From UHGV virus genome UHGV-0120658: DNA of 39,443 nt. The stretch is one strand, 5' to 3'. The position numbers and the translations under genes were made by a program. The notes under the pieces were generated by a model that was not told where the DNA came from, searched no databases, and was given only the letters and a program-made list of their open reading frames with translations. The DNA is from a virus. This document shows, piece by piece, positions 2,188-36,773 of this stretch (the first letter of the stretch is position 1; every line of letters starts with the position of its first letter).

Positions 2188-3132
2188 TTAATCTGTTTCT
2201 TTATCACTTCCAGTTACTTTAACTTTGTCTTTGATTGTATTCACAAATGACGCAAAGCTCGGTGGTTGCTCTGTCTGACCTGAAAATGCAGAGTCACCTG
2301 AAATATTCCAATCCTTAAAGACTTCTATTGCATCCTCTTTAGTTGCTGTAGAACCGTATATCTGCAAAAAAACTTGACCAAACATCAAAGCATGTCGACG
2401 ATCTTTTCGCCTGATCGATTCATGTGTGTACTTTTTTGAGTTACTAAGGCAGATATATGATAGCCATGAAAGAATGGCGATTCCAACTAATCCTCGCGTG
2501 AAGATATATATTAACTGAAGGTTAGTGAGATTTTTTAAATCTAAGTTCATGTATAATGTAAAAAAAGCAGATACTACCGCAAGGAAGCCAAAAAATACCC
2601 CAGCAATAGACCAGATAATAGACATCAATATAAAATGTTTGTCATCACTAGCAAGATCTGATTTAACATCGTTAACATAGGTAGGGATTTTTTCATCGAT
2701 TCTTTGTTGCTGTACTTGGCTACGGAGTTCCTTATTTTCACTAATCAATGAATTAACTTGTTTTACATTTTTTTCGATTATTGCGTTTTTTCTATTAATA
2801 TCCTGAGTATAATGCTCTAACTGTAGAGTTAATATGCTGTTTCGTTCTTCTAATTGTATTATATGTTCTACATAATTATTAGGTTCAAGTGATTTTACAT
2901 TTTTTCTTTTATTAGTTTCATTTTCATTTATATTGGGTTCTTCATCCATCGCTGGCCTAGTTATGTATTTTTCAATTAGTGCTAGGTTATTATGAGCTTC
3001 AGAAAACTCTCCTGCTTCTATTAAGTTTTTTATATGAGAGTAGAAGTGTTTTGCTATATTTTCAGACTGTGAATCAAGAAAGTCTAATAGGTGTTTTTTT
3101 ATTTCGCTATCTTTATTGGTTGGTTCAGTCAT
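2188..3132 (-). CDS. Hypothetical 314-aa coiled-coil membrane protein (two predicted TM helices); cargo in the lysogenic operon
   Basis: AT-rich ORF between repressor and int on the same strand. Heptad-rich N-terminal half, two hydrophobic helices (ILMSIIWSIAGVFFGFLAVVSAFFTLYM and LQLIYIFTRGLVGIAILSWLSYICL, about 2446-2631), soluble C-terminus. Start codon 12 nt after the repressor stop. Confidence 0.6.
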   Translation of the reverse strand: MTEPTNKDSEIKKHLLDFLDSQSENIAKHFYSHIKNLIEAGEFSEAHNNLALIEKYITRPAMDEEPNINENETNKRKNVKSLEPNNYVEHIIQLEERNSILTLQLEHYTQDINRKNAIIEKNVKQVNSLISENKELRSQVQQQRIDEKIPTYVNDVKSDLASDDKHFILMSIIWSIAGVFFGFLAVVSAFFTLYMNLDLKNLTNLQLIYIFTRGLVGIAILSWLSYICLSNSKKYTHESIRRKDRRHALMFGQVFLQIYGSTATKEDAIEVFKDWNISGDSAFSGQTEQPPSFASFVNTIKDKVKVTGSDKETD

Positions 3133-3143
3133 GATGTTTCTCT

Positions 3144-4079
3144 TTATATATTTTTAGTAAAAACTCTTTTACATTTTGCCAAAACGATAATGTCAGTAAG
3201 TAAGCATTCAAAACTTGTGTTAGTGCCTACAACTTTAACCATACCAACGGGTATGCGAGTCAAATCTTTGATGCTTATTTTCCCTTCAATATTCACAAGC
3301 CACTTGCCATCAGTAACTTCATTAAATTTTGATTCTACAATATATATTTCCTCATCAATGAATACTGCTAAAGGTTGCAGAAAGGTTCCTTCTAACAACT
3401 TAGAGTCAAAAGTCAAGACGGTTTCTTGAGCAAGAGATCCATCAATTATTTTATGATATGGGATAGTGATAGTATTGATTCGAGGCTTTTCAAACATTGC
3501 CCCGTTACCAGTGGTTAGCCATGTTAATGAAGCACCAGTTTCCAGTGAGCATTGAATAATCCAGTCAGCAGGAAAGGTATCTCTCATGTAACGATTGGCT
3601 AATGTACTTTTTGATACACCAATATGATCAGCTAAAGCTTGTCTTGTCTTAAATCCATAAGCCAAAACGATTCGCTCTATTGCTGCTTTTCCGCCTTGGT
3701 TAATAGTAAAAAAGTTCTCATTTTGGATGTCTTGTTCTCTATTGAGATGTTGATGCTTGCTGTCACAATTGTTGTGACTTTTTTCTGCATTATTTGTAAT
3801 GCTTCCCTTCTCGGTATCAGTGCCAAATGCCAACCACTCGACCGGCACTCCAGTCTCCATGCTACAGATAACAACCCAATCAGCAGGGAAAGTGTCACGG
3901 GCATACCTGTTCGCCATTGTACTTTGCGATATACCTAGGTGATTACAGAATGCTTGTCGGGAAGAAAAACCATAGGCTTTCAGTATCCGATCTATAACCG
4001 ATTGCCCTCCGCGATTCTGCATGATTAAGGATTTCTTTTTTTCGTCCACATGGCGAAATGTGATTTCGTGTGTTGACAT
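3144..4079 (-). CDS. Prophage immunity repressor with two tandem CI-type HTH domains and a C-terminal beta-rich domain
   Basis: Residues about 24-86 and 129-191 are about 59% identical repeats (AYGF..RQA...G.S.ST.ANRY.RDTFPADW...CS.ETG...WL..G), resembling the phage CI N-terminal HTH. Divergent from the Apl-like gene across the 4080-4167 intergenic region. Confidence 0.7.
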   Translation of the reverse strand: MSTHEITFRHVDEKKKSLIMQNRGGQSVIDRILKAYGFSSRQAFCNHLGISQSTMANRYARDTFPADWVVICSMETGVPVEWLAFGTDTEKGSITNNAEKSHNNCDSKHQHLNREQDIQNENFFTINQGGKAAIERIVLAYGFKTRQALADHIGVSKSTLANRYMRDTFPADWIIQCSLETGASLTWLTTGNGAMFEKPRINTITIPYHKIIDGSLAQETVLTFDSKLLEGTFLQPLAVFIDEEIYIVESKFNEVTDGKWLVNIEGKISIKDLTRIPVGMVKVVGTNTSFECLLTDIIVLAKCKRVFTKNI

Positions 4080-4167
4080 AACCGATTTGTGATCCTATTC
4101 TCCGAAATGTGAAGTTGAAGCCACGATTAAAACTGACTCACCACAAGCCAATAGGAGATGTTGCATC
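4080..4167. promoter_or_regulatory. Divergent switch region (lytic and lysogenic promoters and operators expected)
   Basis: Intergenic region between the divergently transcribed repressor and Apl-like gene; contains TGTGA-type motifs. No operator or promoter was resolved. Confidence 0.3.
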
Positions 4168-5761: not shown

Positions 5762-5995
5762 ATGCGTAATATTGAAACCCTCACGACTAAAACCGGACCG
5801 GATGATGCAGGTCTTAATCTTTTACTGACAGAGGCCCGACTTGAAGAACGTCGGGCAAGGGCTGAGGCAATGGCTGCCCGCCTTGATAGCCTGGCGTGTC
5901 ATATCACATCCCGCCAGCTAAACCACGTCGAAGCAGCAGAACTGCTGCGTGTGACCGCTGAAGCAATCCAGAACGAAGCGCAGGAGATCCACTAA
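5762..5995 (+). CDS. Hypothetical early protein (77 aa)
   Basis: ATG at 5762 preceded by CAGGAGAA RBS; its stop overlaps the start of the TraR-like gene. Confidence 0.5.
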   Translation: MRNIETLTTKTGPDDAGLNLLLTEARLEERRARAEAMAARLDSLACHITSRQLNHVEAAELLRVTAEAIQNEAQEIH

Positions 5996-6222
5996 TGGCT
6001 GATGCAATGGATCTCGTACAGCAGCGCGTTGAAGAAGAACGCCAGCGCCATATCCGTGCTGCCCGTGCCAAAACACCGGGCGTGTCTCGCGTGCTTTGCA
6101 TTGAATGTGAAGCACCAATTCCGCCAGCACGCCGCCGTGCCATTCCTGGAGTGCAGCTTTGCATTACCTGTCAGGAAATCGCAGAGCTGAAAGGCAAACA
6201 TTACAACGGAGGTGCTGTATGA
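5995..6222 (+). CDS. TraR/DksA-family C4 zinc-finger protein
   Basis: CIECEAPIPPARRRAIPGVQLCITCQ gives a CxxC-N17-CxxC finger; position matches the small zinc-finger ORF upstream of A in P2-like phages. Confidence 0.75.
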   Translation: MADAMDLVQQRVEEERQRHIRAARAKTPGVSRVLCIECEAPIPPARRRAIPGVQLCITCQEIAELKGKHYNGGAV

Positions 6223-7076
6223 GCACCATCCTGAAATGGGCGGGAAATAAAACCGCAATTATGTCCGAACTGAAAAAATACCTACCTGCTGGCCCGCGAC
6301 TGGTTGAACCTTTCGCGGGTTCCTGTGCTGTGATGATGGAGACGGATTACCCCAGCTATCTGGTTGCGGATATTAATCCTGATTTAATCAACCTCTATAA
6401 AAAGATTGCCGCTGATTGCGAGGCGTTTATATCGCGGACCAGAACTTTGTTTGAGGAAGCAAACAGTGACCTAGCTTATTACAACATAAGGCAGGAGTTT
6501 AATTACTCAACTGAAATTACTGATTTCATGAAAGCGATATATTTCCTGTATCTCAATCGTCATGGTTACCGTGGGTTATGTCGCTATAACAAGAGCGGGC
6601 ATTTCAACATTCCCTACGGTAATTATAAAAATCCGTATTTCCCTGAAAAAGAAATTCGCGCATTTGCAGAAAAAGCCCAGCGGGCAACGTTTATCTGCGC
6701 CAGCTTTGATGAAACGCTGGCGATGTTGAAGGCGGGGGATGTGGTGTATTGCGATCCGCCGTATGACGGCACGTTTTCCGGTTATCACACTGACGGCTTC
6801 ACTGAAGATGACCAGTATCACCTGGCATCCGTTCTTGAATATCGATCATCAGAAGGTCATCCGGTCATTGTTTCTAACAGTGACACATCCCTGATCCGTT
6901 CGCTGTATCGCAATTTCACTCACCACTACATCAAGGCAAAACGCAGCATCGGCGTGTCAGCTGGCGAGAGTAAATCTGCAACAGAAATCATTGCTGTTTC
7001 CGGGTCGCGCTGCTGGATGGGATTTGATCCTTCGCGTGGCGTGGATAGTTCTGCTGTGTACGAGGTGCGTGTATGA
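6219..7076 (+). CDS. dam: DNA adenine methyltransferase (Dam-like, N6-A MTase)
   Basis: N-terminal LKWAGNK and AdoMet motif EPFAGSCAV, catalytic DPPY (VYCDPPYDG). ATGA overlap with the TraR-like gene at the start and with gene A at the end. Confidence 0.85.
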
Positions 7077-9487
7077 GTCATGACGATATGAGCAACTCTA
7101 GCGGCTTTAACGAGGCTGCCGCAGCATTTTCATGGAACGGCCCGAAAAAGGCCATTAACCCTTATCTGGATCCGGCGGAAGTTGCGCCGGAGTCTGCACT
7201 TTCAAACCTGATCACTCTGTACGCTGCCGATAACGAGCAGGAACAACTGCGCCGCGAGGCACTGAGTGAGCAGGTCTGGGAGCGTTATTTCTTTAATGAA
7301 TCCCGTGATCCTGTCCAGCGCGAAATGGAGCAGGATAAGCTCATTAGCCGGGCAAAGCTGGCGCATGAGCAGCAGCGTTTTAACCCGGACATGGTCATTC
7401 TGGCAGATGTCAGCGCCCAGCCTTCTCATATCAGCAAGCCGCTGATGCAAAGTATCGAATACTTCAGCAGCCTGGGCAGGCCAAAGGCTTATTCCCGCTA
7501 TTTGCGTGAGACGATTAAGCCATGTCTGGAGCGACTGGATTGTGTACGTGACAGTCAGCTATCTGTTTCTTTCCGTTTTATGGCAAGCCATCAAGGGCTG
7601 GAGGGGCTGCTGATCCTGCCTGAAATGAGCCAGGATCAGGTGAAACGCCTGTCCACCCTGGTAGCAGCGCATATGAGCATGTGTCTTGAGGCCGCTTGTG
7701 GTGATTTGTACGCCACCGATGACGTTAAGCCAGAAGAAATCCGCAAGACATGGGAAAAGGTGGCTGCGGAAACCCTGCGTCTGGATGTTATCCCGCCTGC
7801 GTTTGAGAAACTTCGTCGGAAAAGAAACCGCCGCAAACCTGTGCCCTATGAACTCATACCGGGTTCGCTGGCACGTATGCTTTGCGCCGACTGGTGGTAT
7901 CGAAAATTGTGGAAGATGCGTTGCGAATGGCGGGAAGAGCAGTTGCGTGCTGTCTGTCTGGTCAGCAAAAAAGCATCTCCCTATGTCAGCTATGAAGCAG
8001 TGACGCATAAACGTGAGCAGCGCCGCAAGTCGCTGGAGTTTTTCCGTTCTCATGAACTGGTGAACGAAGACGGAGACACGCTGGATATGGAAGATGTGGT
8101 AAACGCCAGCAGCAGCAACCCGGCACATCGCCGCAATGAGATGATGGCCTGCGTTAAAGGTCTGGAGCTTATCGCGGAAATGCGCGGTGACTGCGCCGTT
8201 TTCTACACCATCACCTGTCCGTCACGTTTCCATTCCACGCTCAATAACGGCAGACCAAACCCGACCTGGACAAATGCGACGGTAAGACAAAGCAGTGATT
8301 ATCTGGTCGGCATGTTTGCTGCATTTCGTAAGGCGATGCACAAAGCCGGATTGCGGTGGTATGGCGTGCGGGTGGCTGAGCCGCATCATGACGGTACTGT
8401 GCACTGGCATCTCATGTGCTTCATGCGTAAAAAAGACCGCCGCGCCATCACTGCATTACTGCGTAAGTTTGCCATCCGTGAAGACCGCGAGGAACTGGGC
8501 AATAACACGGGGCCACGCTTTAAGTCTGAGCTGATTAACCCGCGCAAAGGAACGCCGACAAGCTACATCGCGAAATACATCAGTAAGAACATTGACGGGC
8601 GTGGTCTGGCTGGCGAGATCAGCAAGGAAACGGGTAAATCCCTGCGTGATAACGCTGAATACGTTAATGCCTGGGCGTCTCTGCATCGTGTTCAGCAATT
8701 CCGCTTCTTTGGCATTCCGGGGCGTCAGGCTTACCGTGAACTGCGATTGCTGGCTGGTCAGGCGGCAAGGCAGCAGGGTGACAAAAAAGCAGGTGCGCCG
8801 GTACTGGATGATCCGCGTCTTGATGCCATTCTGGCTGCTGCTGATGCTGGCTGTTTTGCCACCTACATTATGAAGCAGGGCGGCGTGTTGGTTCCCCGCA
8901 AATATCACTTGATCAGAACCGCTTATGAAATCAACGAAGAGCCGACCGCCTATGGTGATCACGGTATTCGTATTTATGGCATCTGGTCACCCATTGCAGA
9001 GGGCAAGATCTGCACTCATGCAGTGAAGTGGAAAATGGTTCGTAAGGCCGTTGACGTTCAGGAGGCGGCAGCCGACCAGGGCGCTTGCGCCCCTTGGACT
9101 CGTGGCAATAACTGTCCCCTTGCTGAAAATTTGAACCAACAGGAGAAAGATAAATCAGCTGATGGGGACCCCAGAACGGACATTACCAGCATGGATGACA
9201 AGGGGTTGCACGATTACCTGCACAGTATGAGCAAAAAAGAGCGCCGGGAACTGGCAGCAAGGTTATGCCTGGTGAAACCGAAACGGCGTAAAGACTACAA
9301 ACAGCGAATTACAGACCATCAGCGACTGCAGCTCGTGTATGAGCTGAAGTCCAGAGGATTTGATGGCAGCGAGAAAGAGGTCGATTTACTCCTTCGCGGA
9401 GGCAGTATTCCGTCAGGAGCAGGCCTGCGTATCTTCTATCGGAACCAGCGTTTGCAGGAAGATGATCAGTGGCGGAACCTGTATTAA
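7073..9487 (+). CDS. A: Replication initiation protein A (rolling-circle endonuclease, P2 gpA-like)
   Basis: 804 aa with HxH motif VHWHLMCF and the tyrosine pair SYIAKYISK typical of P2 A-type initiators. Confidence 0.85.
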
Positions 9488-10073: not shown

Positions 10074-10208
10074 GAAACGTTGCTGGCGTCTGAACTTGCT
10101 TCTGGCGTCAGCAAGGTTGAACAACGAGCCCTTGCGAGGCGTTAGCTCTGTAGTGCATGTCTATGCCGCATGAGATCGCATGATCGTTTGAGGATCGTTT
10201 TTGCTAAG

Positions 10209-10232
10209 GCCCGCCAGAACTGGCGGGCTTTT
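10209..10232 (+). terminator. Rho-independent terminator after the SOS module
   Basis: gcccgcca (10209-10216), loop gaac, tggcgggc (10221-10228), then tttt. Confidence 0.6.
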
Positions 10233-10383: not shown

Positions 10384-11463
10384 GTGGCGTTATCAGATGC
10401 GTTAATTACAGTAAATCAAGCCGAACGGGGCGGTGAAAACGCGTTGAGAGGCTTTTCATATCAAGCCTCTTGGGGGATAAATTATTTACTTGAGAAACAA
10501 AAAGAAAAGGAGAAATATTTATTTCTATTTGAATATCATGACGATATTCTTGTATTGAATTCATCTGTTTCTCCGACTAGTGCTGAGTTTATCCAAGTTA
10601 AAACAAAAAAAGATGGTAAATGGACACTCGCAGCAATAGTGAACGCAACAAAAGCTAAACCTAAATCATTTGTTGCAAAACTATATGACCATTTCTATCA
10701 ATTCGTTGGTCACGAAATTTATATGGTTCTGTTATCGAATGCTGGATTCGATTTCTTAAATGATAATAACGAAAAAGGTAGTGATCTTAATAATGAGCAT
10801 AAGGAAATTATAATTAGTAAGGTTCAAGAGCAGCTAAATACTAAAAAAGAAGTTCCTCTTGATAAAATAAAATTTAAAACATCTGATCTTAGTTTGTTAG
10901 ATCCTAACTCACATTTATACGGGAAAGTTGCAGTTTTTTTGAATTCTTACTTTGGGGATGATCATGGTATTAATTCAACAGCATTCACTAAATTATTAAT
11001 CAATAAGTGTAATGAGAAGGTTAGTGTTGCTTCTAGTGATATCAAAACTTTTGAAGATTTAGTACTAAAGAAAGGTATATCTTCAGAATTTGTAACTGAT
11101 TTATTATCTGGACTCATTGCAAGCATAAAAATAACGCCAAAATGGGAACAGGTTTGTATGTTGCTTGGTACTTTCTCAGATCCTTATGAGGGGATTAAAT
11201 TACAATCAGTTTTTACACGCATATCAATAAAAGTGCTCAATGTCAATTCAATATACTATCTTTATTTTCTGGAATTTCAATCGGCTCTAAAGAGTATAGA
11301 GCATTATCGTGAGATACCTGTTCGAGACCTCTTCTTTACACTCGAAAAAACAATTGCAGCGGGGGACGGGGATTTCTCTTTATTAAATCAAGAAGAGAAA
11401 TTTATGATTGCTATATATGCAATTATAAAGTTGACTTTTGAGGATGTTTCTTATGAAGAATAA
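10384..11463 (+). CDS. Candidate defence effector: PD-(D/E)xK nuclease of the Cap4/DUF4297 type (LmuA-like)
   Basis: AT-rich gene; N-terminal GFSYQ, then FEYHDDILVL...AEFIQVKTKK, i.e. a D...QxK restriction-endonuclease-like catalytic core (about 10540-10602). GTG start with AGGGA RBS; 11-nt overlap with the downstream ATPase gene. Confidence 0.55.
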   Translation: MALSDALITVNQAERGGENALRGFSYQASWGINYLLEKQKEKEKYLFLFEYHDDILVLNSSVSPTSAEFIQVKTKKDGKWTLAAIVNATKAKPKSFVAKLYDHFYQFVGHEIYMVLLSNAGFDFLNDNNEKGSDLNNEHKEIIISKVQEQLNTKKEVPLDKIKFKTSDLSLLDPNSHLYGKVAVFLNSYFGDDHGINSTAFTKLLINKCNEKVSVASSDIKTFEDLVLKKGISSEFVTDLLSGLIASIKITPKWEQVCMLLGTFSDPYEGIKLQSVFTRISIKVLNVNSIYYLYFLEFQSALKSIEHYREIPVRDLFFTLEKTIAAGDGDFSLLNQEEKFMIAIYAIIKLTFEDVSYEE

Positions 11464-13111
11464 CGTTAAATTTAAAAATATAAAAATACTCTCATTAAGA
11501 GACAGAAAAGCTTTTTCTTATGAGTTTTCAGAAGGGGTTAACTTCATATATGGTACAAATGATGTTGGTAAATCAAGCCTGATTAAAAGTCTTTATTACA
11601 CATTAGGTGGAGATTTAAGGCTTGATGATGCTTGGAAATCAGATGATATAGTTACACTGGTGGAAATTAATAACGGGGAAAATGATTTTATTTTTTTGCG
11701 TTATAAAAAGATTATTGGTGTCTTTGATTTGAAGAATGATGATCTAGTCGTGTATAACACGATTTCGTCATTAGCATCTCGTGTTTCAAATATATTTGGT
11801 TTTAAACTGGAATTACATAATAAATATACGGGTGCTACGACTCAGGCAAACCCTGCTTGTTTGTTTGCCCCATTCTTTATTGATCAGGATGAAGGATGGA
11901 AAGCGGTGATAAATTCTTTCGAAAACATGAGTATGTACTCAGAATGGCAAAAAAACATTCTTTACTATCACTCTGGAATTAAGCCAAAGGAATATTATAC
12001 AGTTCAAGGGAAAATCAAAGAAATTAAAGTTAAAATTTCAGAGTTAGATGGTTTTGTTAAGGTTCTAAAAAGAAGCAAAAGTAAGATTGATGAATCTTTT
12101 GGCGTGGTTTTATTTGATGTTGATTTGGATTTTTATAAATCAAAGTTGGAACGTATATTAAATGAATATTCTAATTTAAATTTAGTTCAGACAGAATATA
12201 GATTGAATCTTTTGAGGTTATATTCTAGGAAGAATTTCCTTGAGAGTGAACTCAAAGAGATAACTGCGATTATTGATAATGAATTTGAGATTTCGAATTT
12301 TCGAGATGATAATGTTGCTTATTCAGTAAATGAATATAATTATATAAACCATAGAGATGAAATGCTCAAAAACATTGCTGTTCTTGCAGATGAGAAAAGC
12401 AAGATTGAGGAAAATATTCCTAAATTGAATCAAAAGCTAGAAGAGTCAAGGGCTGCTTCAGAGGCGTTGCAGGCGCTGATTTTAGAAACTCAATCGGAAA
12501 TAACGCTTCATGATGTTATTAAATCTGCCGCATACCATGAAATTGAATCTACTTTTATTTCACAGTTAGATGAGTTATTCGTTGAGATTGGTCGAAAAGA
12601 AGGCGAGTTGACAGAATTACAAGAAGAATTAGAAGTATACAATGATAAGAAAAGAACTGTTAAAATAAATGACTGTTTCAAAGAGTATTTCGCTAAAGCT
12701 CTTAAAGAGCTTGGTGTCGAAAATACAAAGGTAGGTGGCCTTAGTAGTTATAATAATATTACTAAGGGTAAGACTGGTAGTCGAGGTCCTCGAGGTATAT
12801 TTGCATTTCACTACGCGCTGCTTAGTGTTATGAAAAGCAACTCTTCAGTTGAGAATATGCCTATAGTAATAGACTCTCCAAAGCAACAAGATTTGGATCC
12901 AGAGCATACGCATAAGCTTATAAAACTATGCTTGGATGGGTTTTCCCTTACAAATCAGATTATTATTGGAACTGTTGGTTATGAGAGTTTCATGGATGGT
13001 TTTAATAGCATCAAACTTGAAAATAAATATCATCTTTTAAATGATGAACATTATGATAATGTTTATTCTCAATTAATGCCATTGTTTGAACGGGTGATAC
13101 TTTCAAGATGA
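11453..13111 (+). CDS. Candidate defence ATPase: SMC/Rad50-like coiled-coil ABC ATPase (LmuB-like)
   Basis: Walker A GTNDVGKSS near the N-terminus (about 11552-11578), long central heptad-rich region, C-terminal Walker B-like PIVIDSP. ATG at 11453 overlaps the upstream stop (11461-11463). Confidence 0.55.
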   Translation: MKNNVKFKNIKILSLRDRKAFSYEFSEGVNFIYGTNDVGKSSLIKSLYYTLGGDLRLDDAWKSDDIVTLVEINNGENDFIFLRYKKIIGVFDLKNDDLVVYNTISSLASRVSNIFGFKLELHNKYTGATTQANPACLFAPFFIDQDEGWKAVINSFENMSMYSEWQKNILYYHSGIKPKEYYTVQGKIKEIKVKISELDGFVKVLKRSKSKIDESFGVVLFDVDLDFYKSKLERILNEYSNLNLVQTEYRLNLLRLYSRKNFLESELKEITAIIDNEFEISNFRDDNVAYSVNEYNYINHRDEMLKNIAVLADEKSKIEENIPKLNQKLEESRAASEALQALILETQSEITLHDVIKSAAYHEIESTFISQLDELFVEIGRKEGELTELQEELEVYNDKKRTVKINDCFKEYFAKALKELGVENTKVGGLSSYNNITKGKTGSRGPRGIFAFHYALLSVMKSNSSVENMPIVIDSPKQQDLDPEHTHKLIKLCLDGFSLTNQIIIGTVGYESFMDGFNSIKLENKYHLLNDEHYDNVYSQLMPLFERVILSR

Positions 13112-36615: not shown

Positions 36616-36629
36616 AACAAAAAACCCAT
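36616..36629. repeat. Candidate attR core (14-bp direct repeat, copy 2)
   Basis: aacaaaaaacccat, identical to 603-616. Confidence 0.4.
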
Positions 36630-36661
36630 CAACCTTGAACCGAAATGGCGGGGTTGATGGG
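36616..36661 (-). terminator. Candidate ybjL terminator
   Basis: cccatcaacc (36625-36634) pairs with ggttgatggg (36652-36661) around a 17-nt loop; on the minus strand it is followed by a U-run (complement of the A-run at 36616-36624). Confidence 0.35.
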
Positions 36662-36773
36662 CTCCACAAAATGGGGACATCAAAGAAAAGCAGTGGCACT
36701 AATTAAGACTGATGCCCTGCGGAAAAGTTCTGCGGTTGTGCAAAAAAATTTCATTTTCAGGGCAACTTCAGTT

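Follow-up and report, generated by a model that had tools for sequence, protein, structure and literature searches.

The virus genome UHGV-0120658, a stretch of 39,443 nucleotides referred to here as the window, carries a Dam-type DNA methyltransferase gene wedged between a TraR-like zinc-finger gene and the replication gene A. What is such a gene doing there, and do its start and stop overlaps with both neighbors mean anything? The original prediction saw it as cargo in the early operon, translationally coupled to its neighbors, expressed with the replication genes, and able to provide anti-restriction or to alter GATC-dependent processes of the host. We very probably have here the usual replication module in the early operon of an Escherichia coli prophage of the Fels-2/Kapieceevirus type, related to 186 (Peduoviridae) and integrated at rybB; the module would be driven by a pR-like promoter, linked by translational restart, and used for methylation of the phage's own GATC sites.

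Gene organization of the locus

The features of the locus, all on the + strand, are the following:

4073–4101, + strand: candidate pR-like early lytic promoter (TTGACA, 17 nt, TATTCT), a consensus match only
5762–5995, + strand: DUF2732 gene (PF10809, E = 4e-29), homologue of 186 CP80 and P2 orf80
5995–6222, + strand: TraR/DksA-family C4 zinc-finger gene, 75 aa, homologue of 186 CP81 and P2 orf82
6208–6231, + strand: ribosome-binding site of dam (GGAGGTG, 6208–6214) inside a predicted hairpin
6219–6222, + strand: ATGA start/stop overlap of the zinc-finger gene and dam, read from the sequence
6219–7076, + strand: dam, orphan Dam-family (D12, alpha-group) N6-adenine DNA methyltransferase, 285 aa, with predicted GATC specificity
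7062–7076, + strand: Shine-Dalgarno of A (GAGGTG, 7062–7067) and the ATGA overlap of dam and A (7073–7076)
7073–9487, + strand: gene A, P2/186-type rolling-circle replication initiator, 804 aa (PF05840)

The sequence, read directly, places the zinc-finger ORF between its ATG at 5995 and its TGA at 6220–6222, the dam ORF between its ATG at 6219 and its TGA at 7074–7076 (285 aa), and the start codon of A, an ATG, at 7073. The two ATGA overlaps (6219–6222 and 7073–7076) are exactly those first described, and the gene identities proposed with them were correct, with matches to PF01258 for the TraR-like zinc finger, PF02086 for Dam and PF05840 for A. One junction upstream, the TAA stop of the DUF2732 gene (5993–5995) shares one nucleotide with the zinc-finger start (TAATG). 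All three starts have their own Shine-Dalgarno, AGGAG at 5982–5986 for the zinc finger, GGAGGTG at 6208–6214 for dam and GAGGTG at 7062–7067 for A. A longer dam ORF of 305 aa, starting from a TTG at 6159, was discarded, because the homologues are all ~285 aa long. The TTG start is also disfavored by the alignment with E. coli Dam, which opens at residue 4 in the numbering that begins with the 6219 ATG.

The surrounding genes are laid out as in the early lytic operon of P2/186-like phages. A CI-like repressor gene is divergent from apl/cox, which is followed by cII, fil, small ORFs, the zinc finger, gpA and a DinI/tum-like gene, colinear with 186, Fels-2 and Kapieceevirus. Pfam profiles recognized CI, CII, DUF5347, DUF2732, the zinc finger and GPA, and DinI was recognized via phrog_189. 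Gene A matched PF05840 (Phage_GPA) with E = 2e-128, and its product was 96% identical to gpA of Klebsiella phage ST512-KPC3phi13.2, in which gene order and overlaps are identical to those of the window.

The zinc-finger protein matched PF01258 (zf-dskA_traR; E = 3e-11, 43.5 bits, cut-off 24.9), TIGR02419 (65.8 bits, cut-off 59.7) and phrog_54 (E = 1e-30), as well as E. coli YbiI (2KGO) and the F-plasmid TraR (5W1S, 6N57). Its four cysteines are spaced as CxxC-17-CxxC (C35-I-E-C38 ... C56-I-T-C59). The homology to TraR in its RNA polymerase complexes (5W1S, 6N57) suggests that the protein may bind the secondary channel of RNA polymerase and modulate transcription.

The Dam protein and its predicted specificity

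The dam product matched the D12 methylase profile PF02086 over its full length (positions 1–253 of 253; E = 5e-76, 256.1 bits, cut-off 22) and the TIGR00571 “dam” subfamily with 320.8 bits, against a cut-off of 114.85. Residues 4–260 aligned with the structures of E. coli Dam (2G1P, 4GOL; E = 2e-72). The two enzymes belong to the same fold family and have in common the SAM-binding motif (PFAGSC, residues 31–36), the catalytic DPPY (residues 179–182), both of which align with the E. coli motifs, and most of the GATC-contact residues. Conserved are K6/W7 (K9/W10 in E. coli Dam), Y117, L120 and R122 (Y119, L122, R124), and N124, N130, P132 and Y136 (N126, N132, P134, Y138), while two positions are changed, N120 to R118 and R137 to N135. 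In the 2G1P structure of E. coli Dam, these are the residues reported to make the DNA contacts and to recognize GATC. The dam gene is, judging by its profile matches and motifs, intact and codes for an orphan Dam-family enzyme, which most likely methylates the adenine of GATC.

Against NF008152, the NCBIfam equivalog of chromosomal Dam, the protein scored 284.4 bits, below the cut-off of 441, and in sequence terms it is a phage paralogue and not the housekeeping orthologue. It differs from chromosomal Dam also by a 25-aa C-terminal tail running into the start of A, and by being phage-borne and under lytic promoter control. The changed DNA-contact residues, together with the sub-equivalog score, leave room for an altered or relaxed specificity.

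D12-class enzymes include methylases from type II systems, DpnII being an example, and the second-best PADLOC model for the window Dam was a type II methylase. The best model, however, was the orphan methylase PDLC03729 (E = 6e-110), E. coli Dam was likewise among the best matches, and the TIGR00571 cut-off was passed. In addition, no nuclease or restriction endonuclease gene adjoined dam in any of the 42 loci surveyed here (the window, four phages and 37 species genomes), the neighbors being always phage early genes. That the methylase would be one half of a restriction-modification system, or would recognize a site other than GATC, is therefore extremely improbable.

The window has 141 GATC sites, for 153 (zero-order model) or 174 (Markov model) expected. 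This is no signal of avoidance or enrichment, and we dropped the site count as a sign of selection. A count near expectation is consistent with a phage living with GATC methylation.

Conservation and distribution of the module

The order DUF2732, zinc finger, dam, A, with the same overlaps, was found in 1241 of the 5426 complete E. coli genomes, about a quarter. The exact Dam protein of the window was present on 623 contigs. Outside E. coli, the arrangement was found in the Klebsiella phages Kapieceevirus and Gegavirus, in Fels-2, and in ~35 other Enterobacterales species. In Escherichia phage Cartapus, Salmonella phage RE-2010 and SopEPhi, which were compared by DNA match and by their annotation, the zinc finger-dam segment had 73–94% DNA identity to the window, with the same annotated neighbors where these were annotated.

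In E. coli, 1240 genomes had the DUF2732/zinc-finger segment of this lineage, and 1241 had zinc finger-dam-A. These nearly equal counts indicate that Dam is a fixed part of the lineage and not sporadic cargo. The layout is thus ordinary, already annotated and already known, and the unusualness implied by the original prediction was not borne out: besides its frequency in E. coli, the module has had both database entries and a literature ever since retron-Ec67 was studied.

At the start of dam, the overlap with the upstream stop has the form NTGA in 40 of the 42 loci. At its end, ATGA or GTGA is kept in Kapieceevirus, Gegavirus, Fels-2, SEN8 and most species genomes; in Fels-2 and SEN8 it is a GTGA that lies in frame, 6 nt into A from the GTG annotated as its start. 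A gap of 31 nt separates dam from A in four Kosakonia-type loci (L029–L032, one of them labelled as an Enterobacter MAG).

Comparison with known phages and with retron-Ec67

One protein, P0148, also 285 aa long, is annotated as “retron EC67 DNA adenine methylase” and was 93% identical to the window Dam. For the retron-Ec67 element, Dam methylase function is stated in the title of the original paper (Hsu, Inouye and Inouye 1990, PNAS), and Dodd and Egan (1996, Virology) place the Ec67 retron in a 186-related prophage. The retron-Ec67 Dam thus shares with ours its location in a 186-related E. coli prophage. P0148 carries its name by annotation transfer, and the identity of our Dam to the prototype is indirect. 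Unlike the retron-Ec67 element, the window has no retron, and its prophage cargo slot, at 10384–13111, is occupied by Lamassu.

Fels-2 (STM2731-STM2730-STM2729), Kapieceevirus and Gegavirus agree with the window in gene order (DUF2732, zinc finger, dam, A), in the lengths of the genes and in the 4-nt overlaps. DNA identity to the window was 94–95% for Kapieceevirus, Cartapus and RE-2010, and 73–78% for Fels-2, Gegavirus and SopEPhi. The window differs from these phages in the immunity region (a CI with two HTH domains) and in the cargo genes. Fels-2 itself has diverged in the last ~80 bp of dam and in the annotated start of A, a GTG located 10 nt before the stop, with the in-frame GTGA as overlap. 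A literature search returned no functional study of a Dam from P2-like phages, and STM2730 turned up only in work on the sigma-54 regulon.

Phage 186 (CP80-CP81-CP82-CP83-CP84-A) shares with the window the DUF2732, zinc-finger and A flanks, the chain of ATGA overlaps and, presumably, a pR-driven transcript. Where the window has Dam, 186 has an RNase_T-type exonuclease, a DUF5405 protein and a PAPS reductase, and its A gene has no detectable DNA similarity to that of the window. Phage P2 (orf80-orf83-A) likewise has a series of small, non-essential ORFs running up to A, among them DUF2732 and a DksA-like zinc finger. It differs by orf81 and the DUF5405 gene (orf83), by having no methylase, and by its immunity system. 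The original prediction was right that P2 and 186 lack a Dam: none is annotated in either, and tblastn against them gave no hits better than E = 0.39.

A variable slot between the zinc finger and A

Variable small ORFs have long been noted in this region of P2-like phages. In the relatives, the place between the zinc finger and A was taken by a second m6A (D12) methylase, an m5C (C5) methylase, an exonuclease, a DUF3850/ASCH protein or a PAPS reductase, each attached through an NTGA overlap. DNA similarity of the window to 186 and SEN8 breaks exactly at the ATGA junction, at window position 6225. The content of this slot is variable, and the breakpoints at the junction are clean. Judged by these gene contents, dam is at the family level one of several interchangeable cassettes in the zinc finger-A slot. 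The description of dam as cargo in the early operon therefore holds for the family, where slot content varies by lineage, and fails for the E. coli lineage, in which dam is fixed.

A wider reading, which we offer tentatively and regard as rather improbable, is that the zinc finger-A site of 186/Fels-2-type phages is a standardized slot into which cassettes for DNA modification and counter-defence are plugged. The conserved junction would then be an extended Shine-Dalgarno plus NTGA (GGnGGTGC, 3–4 nt, ATGA), serving both as a translational relay and as microhomology for cassette exchange, and the cassette at hand would set which defences are escaped. The counter-defence function of the cassettes and the role of the junction in recombination are speculation.

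Translational coupling and RNA structure

Both dam junctions have the layout of a coupled gene pair, with the genes on the same strand and the upstream stop overlapping the downstream start (ATGA), conserved in relatives. In themselves, 4-nt overlaps at the dam junctions are nothing special, since at least six other neighboring gene pairs in the window have them (eight such overlaps among the main ORFs), yet here they are strongly conserved.

At the zinc finger/dam junction a hairpin was predicted, GGAGGUGCU-GUAUG-AGCACCAUCC, in which the Shine-Dalgarno is paired and the AUG/UGA overlap lies in the loop. The 101-nt fold at this junction had z = -3.09, with 1 of 200 shuffles folding as well, and the hairpin was also predicted in close relatives. 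A covariation test over 29 distinct junctions gave 76% pairing and zero double-sided changes, with 500 of 500 shuffles matching or exceeding the score. The hairpin was dropped as a coupling device, being accounted for by the conserved Shine-Dalgarno and the conserved N-terminal codons of dam. RNA structure was not significant at the dam/A junction (z = +0.44), nor at the DUF2732/zinc-finger junction (z = -0.92). A search of the locus and its surroundings against Rfam matched no RNA family there; the only match was RybB, at the prophage end.

The overlaps could be compact packing, each gene being translated independently from its own Shine-Dalgarno and without functional coupling, a possibility to be taken seriously but one we doubt. 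The good Shine-Dalgarno at each gene means that initiation could be independent, and the gap of 31 nt in the four Kosakonia-type loci means that dam need not overlap A. The frequency of 4-nt overlaps throughout the prophage, the hairpin lacking covariation and the dam/A junction lacking significant structure also agree with packing. Against it stands the conservation of the NTGA at the dam start, which persists despite differing upstream genes (zinc finger, exonuclease, ASCH protein, second methylase) and is kept also at most cassette-to-A junctions. Further, the record of phage 186 notes that translation of orf84 to its end “appears necessary for translation of A protein”. Also annotated in this record are pR, the early lytic operon as far as A, and a terminator, tM1, which lies early in A and acts when A is untranslated. 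Dependence of downstream on upstream translation is documented only for this orf84/A pair of 186. By the layout and its conservation, we infer that zinc finger, dam and A are probably translationally coupled.

As a counterpart of tM1, we considered a CCGGCG...CGCCGG hairpin at 7171–7189, ~100 nt into A. It has no T-run, is absent from the list of the terminator scan and has a non-significant fold (z = -0.30), and no tM1 counterpart is claimed.

Transcription of dam

A promoter scan of the + strand between 3900 and 10400 found a single sigma-70-like site, at 4073–4101, with 10 of 12 consensus matches. It faces the apl/cox-like gene, back-to-back with the CI-like repressor gene, at a position matching that of pR in 186. 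The consensus match suggests that this site could function as pR. Together with the gene order of 186, this lone pR-like site agrees with the early, replication-operon placement originally proposed for dam. An antisense consensus match at 6649–6622 was discounted, with three sites found for 7.6 expected by chance.

Expression of Dam in the lysogen, as a lysogenic-conversion gene altering the epigenetic regulation or the mutation rate of the host, would be in line with the host effects proposed at the outset. According to a review, the excision of SopEPhi is affected by Dam methylation from the host; this phage is related to the module at the DNA level. However, dam lies deep in a CI-repressed early lytic operon, the nearest forward promoter-like site being that at 4073–4101, and the consensus scan found no internal + strand promoter able to express dam in lysogens. 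Lysogenic-conversion cargo of P2-like phages is located elsewhere, here as Lamassu at 10384–13111. We consider lysogenic conversion by dam very unlikely.

Proposed role of the phage Dam

Upon induction or infection, the CI-repressed pR-like promoter would drive transcription of apl, cII, fil, DUF5347, DUF2732, zinc finger, dam and A. Overlaps of 1 or 4 nt link the genes from DUF2732 to A, each of which has a Shine-Dalgarno of its own; ribosomes ending one gene could thus restart on the next, so that the methylase would be made together with the replication initiator. Dam would then keep the fast-replicating phage DNA fully GATC-methylated when the host Dam is limiting. The progeny would be insensitive to enzymes cutting unmethylated GATC, and its DNA would not be treated as hemimethylated or unmethylated by MutH or SeqA. 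The E. coli host is itself Dam+, so simple GATC protection would add little unless host Dam becomes limiting during phage replication, and the selective benefit of a phage Dam is not obvious.

With GATC already methylated by the host, Dam might instead act mainly in host takeover or counter-defence, either by over-methylation that disturbs SeqA/oriC timing and mismatch repair, or by a relaxed specificity that blocks other restriction and defence systems. The two DNA-contact residues differing from E. coli Dam would fit with this, and the other DNA-modification enzymes in the slot of relatives (second D12 methylase, C5 methylase, PAPS reductase) resemble a counter-defence repertoire. On the other side, the main GATC-contact residues are conserved, and a relaxed specificity of the Dam family has no experimental indication. 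Sequence cannot separate a takeover role from self-methylation; we judge the takeover role unlikely and prefer GATC self-methylation within the replication module.

As a discovery the locus is small, the gene being routinely annotated as “DNA adenine methylase”, its prototype having been reported in 1990, and the module being present in about a quarter of the complete E. coli genomes. Many strains of E. coli, of Klebsiella and of Salmonella probably have, besides their own enzyme, an inducible second methylase for GATC, which can confound dam- genetics and the interpretation of methylomes. Whether the phage Dam triggers or evades defence systems may deserve a test, and for counter-defence screens the family-level slot, with its many DNA-modification genes directly ahead of the replication initiator, offers a modest lead.

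Gene order and identity of the methylase

The following genes were recognized at and around the methylase gene:

5762-5995, DUF2732 gene, preceding the zinc-finger gene and overlapping its start by one base (TAATG)
5995-6222, TraR/DksA C4 zinc-finger gene, 75 aa (PF01258; TIGR02419 above cut-off)
6219-7076, D12-class methylase gene (dam), 285 aa (PF02086, E=5e-76, full length)
7073-9487, replication gene A (PF05840, E=2e-128)

The original prediction, a Dam gene coupled to a TraR-like zinc finger and to gene A, was correct in its gene identities and in both overlaps. The ATGA start/stop overlaps were at 6219-6222 (zinc finger/dam) and 7073-7076 (dam/A), and each start followed a Shine-Dalgarno sequence (AGGAG at 5982-5986 for the zinc finger, GGAGGTG at 6208-6214 for dam, GAGGTG at 7062-7067 for A). 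A TTG at 6159, opening a longer ORF in a mechanical ORF list, was rejected as the dam start: all homologues were ~285 aa long, and the E. coli Dam alignment started at residue 4 from the ATG at 6219.

Residues 4-260 aligned with the E. coli Dam structures 2G1P and 4GOL (E=2e-72). The SAM motif PFAGSC and a catalytic DPPY (179-182) were present, as were counterparts of E. coli Dam K9, W10, Y119, L122, R124, N126, N132, P134 and Y138, residues to which the 2G1P structure paper reportedly assigns functional roles. Two positions differed, E. coli N120 aligning with R and R137 with N. The protein scored above the NCBIfam cut-off for the Dam subfamily and below the equivalog cut-off that defines chromosomal Dam, and its best PADLOC model was an orphan methylase. 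We surveyed 42 loci, which came from the window, from four reference phages and from 37 species genomes retrieved using the Dam protein, and no nuclease gene adjoined dam in any of them. The methylase is an orphan member of the Dam family and not an orthologue of the chromosomal Dam.

The exact protein was found on 623 contigs, recorded as “MULTISPECIES: DNA adenine methylase [Enterobacteriaceae]”. It shared 93% identity with a protein that carries the name “retron EC67 DNA adenine methylase”, to which the Fels-2 RefSeq record likewise links its methylase. The retron-Ec67 element has since been identified as a prophage related to 186. The 90%-identity protein cluster holding the window Dam also contained 804-aa gpA proteins, one being its representative. 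This mixture is a database artefact of the 4-nt dam/A overlap, the bridge presumably being gene calls in which Dam and A are fused or frameshifted (e.g., the protein records P0065 and P0079).

Prophage context and distribution

The genes belonged to a P2/186-like prophage of ~36 kb, located between rcdA and rybB. A 14-nt repeat, AACAAAAAACCCAT, was present at 603-616 and at 36616, in the 3' end of the RybB gene, and is the probable att core. Outside the methylase region we recognized:

36616-36694, minus strand, RybB sRNA gene (Rfam match, 105 bits), marking the right prophage end
10384-11463, plus strand, LmuA (DUF4297; PADLOC E=4e-143)
11438-13111, plus strand, LmuB (SMC-like ATPase; PADLOC E=9e-254)
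2188-3132, minus strand, 314-aa gene between integrase and CI (phrog_2628, a PHROG of unknown function, full length, E=9e-220)

The Lmu genes formed a two-gene Lamassu defence system (10384-13111, plus strand) between the DinI-like and portal genes, a position equivalent to the tin/old cargo slot of P2. E. coli 65COLEC, a 100% match to window 5995-7300, had an ImmA/IrrE and a hypothetical gene there instead. The 314-aa gene had no Pfam domain. It was conserved in the relatives from Klebsiella and E. coli, and may be cargo expressed during lysogeny.

The zinc finger-dam-A segment was found in 1241 of the 5426 complete E. coli genomes, three times at 100% identity, with RefSeq annotating DUF2732, TraR/DksA, DNA adenine methylase and replication endonuclease. 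The DUF2732/zinc-finger segment alone was found in 1240 genomes, which means that in E. coli this phage lineage has Dam as a fixed component. Gene order, gene lengths and overlaps were the same as in the window in Klebsiella Kapieceevirus phages (95% DNA identity) and in Fels-2 and Gegavirus (76-78%). By DNA match and annotation alone, the zinc finger-dam segment was matched in Escherichia phage Cartapus and Salmonella phage RE-2010 (94%), and in SopEPhi (73%). Dam homologues in the same context, with 55-96% protein identity, came from Citrobacter, Enterobacter, Kluyvera, Pantoea, Erwinia, Tatumella, Kosakonia and others. The locus is a typical early operon of the Fels-2/Kapieceevirus type, and the unusualness implied by the original prediction did not hold.

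The site between the zinc finger and A

As anticipated, P2 and 186 lacked Dam: none was annotated, and the best tblastn match had E=0.39. Between zinc finger and A, 186 (whose zinc finger is CP81) had an RNase_T-type exonuclease, DUF5405 and a PAPS reductase, P2 had DUF5405, and SEN8 had the exonuclease followed by Dam. The DNA similarity of the window to 186 and to SEN8 broke in both cases exactly at the zinc finger/dam junction (6225). In other relatives, the gene preceding dam encoded a DUF3850/ASCH protein or a second D12 methylase, and the gene following it a C5 cytosine methylase or PAPS reductase. The second D12 methylase was divergent, 22% identical to Dam. These extra cassettes of other species (second D12 methylase, C5 methylase and DUF3850/ASCH proteins), all NTGA-chained, were seen at:

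L012 2156-3004, L018 3876-4874 and L024 3855-4904
L009, L011, L018, L021 and L036, upstream of dam

NTGA overlaps joined all of these cassettes, and the Shine-Dalgarno sequence ahead of each overlap was extended and of similar form. Across the family, then, this is a slot for cassettes, with Dam as one standard filling. The description of Dam as cargo thus stands for the family, where slot content varies, and fails in E. coli, where Dam is fixed (1240 vs 1241).

An overlap by itself is unremarkable, since 4-nt overlaps were frequent in the prophage (at least eight among the main ORFs, six of them in late genes). At this position, the overlap at the dam start is strongly conserved: NTGA joined it to the upstream stop in 40 of the 42 loci, even where the upstream gene was not the zinc finger. 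Most loci also had a 4-nt overlap of dam with the next gene, usually A. This overlap is not obligatory, because dam and A were 31 nt apart in four Kosakonia-type loci (L029-L032).

Expression of the early genes

Upstream of the operon we found:

3144-4079, minus strand, CI-like repressor gene
4073-4101, plus strand, pR-like promoter candidate, the sole forward-strand consensus site before A

The repressor was 311 aa long (292 aa by RefSeq in a related genome), with two Phage_CI_repr HTH domains in tandem ahead of a CI C-terminal domain. The 186 CI has 192 aa and one HTH domain, whereas here the DNA-binding domain was duplicated. By homology with 186, the repressor would hold the pR-like promoter off in the lysogen. 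Upon induction, a single early transcript would reach A. Because a GATC (4091-4094) lies in the promoter spacer directly 5' of the -10 hexamer (gtGATCcTATTCT), methylation could influence how active this early promoter is.

According to the 186 record, translation of A requires translation to the end of the preceding gene, and a terminator early in A is active when A is untranslated. A translational relay, which we infer for the window, is in keeping with the conserved chain of overlaps: ribosomes would be brought to A while the slot gene product is made alongside. A predicted hairpin paired the dam Shine-Dalgarno with dam codons 2-4 (z=-3.09) and recurred in close relatives. It showed no compensatory change across 29 distinct junctions and did not beat shuffled controls; it was rejected as a relay device, being explained by the conserved Shine-Dalgarno and N-terminal codons. 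Fold prediction gave no significant structure at the dam/A junction, and a hairpin ~100 nt into A had no T-run.

Role of the methylase

The prophage had 141 GATC sites against 153-174 expected, a near-expected frequency, as would be the case for DNA living methylated. The tightest GATC cluster of the window, three sites within 23 bp (GAGATCGCATGATCGTTTGAGGATCG), directly preceded a strong terminator-like hairpin (GGCCCGCCAGAACTGGCGGGCTTTTG) in the intergenic region 3' of the DinI-like gene (10174-10232, plus strand). With moderate confidence, we assign to Dam the self-methylation of phage DNA: it would hold fast-replicating phage DNA fully GATC-methylated while host Dam is limiting. A role in host takeover or counter-defence is less likely, and so is expression of Dam in the lysogen. 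For the family, it is possible, if doubtful, that the slot between zinc finger and A serves as a standardised site for DNA-modification or counter-defence cassettes, with the Shine-Dalgarno-NTGA junction as their point of exchange.
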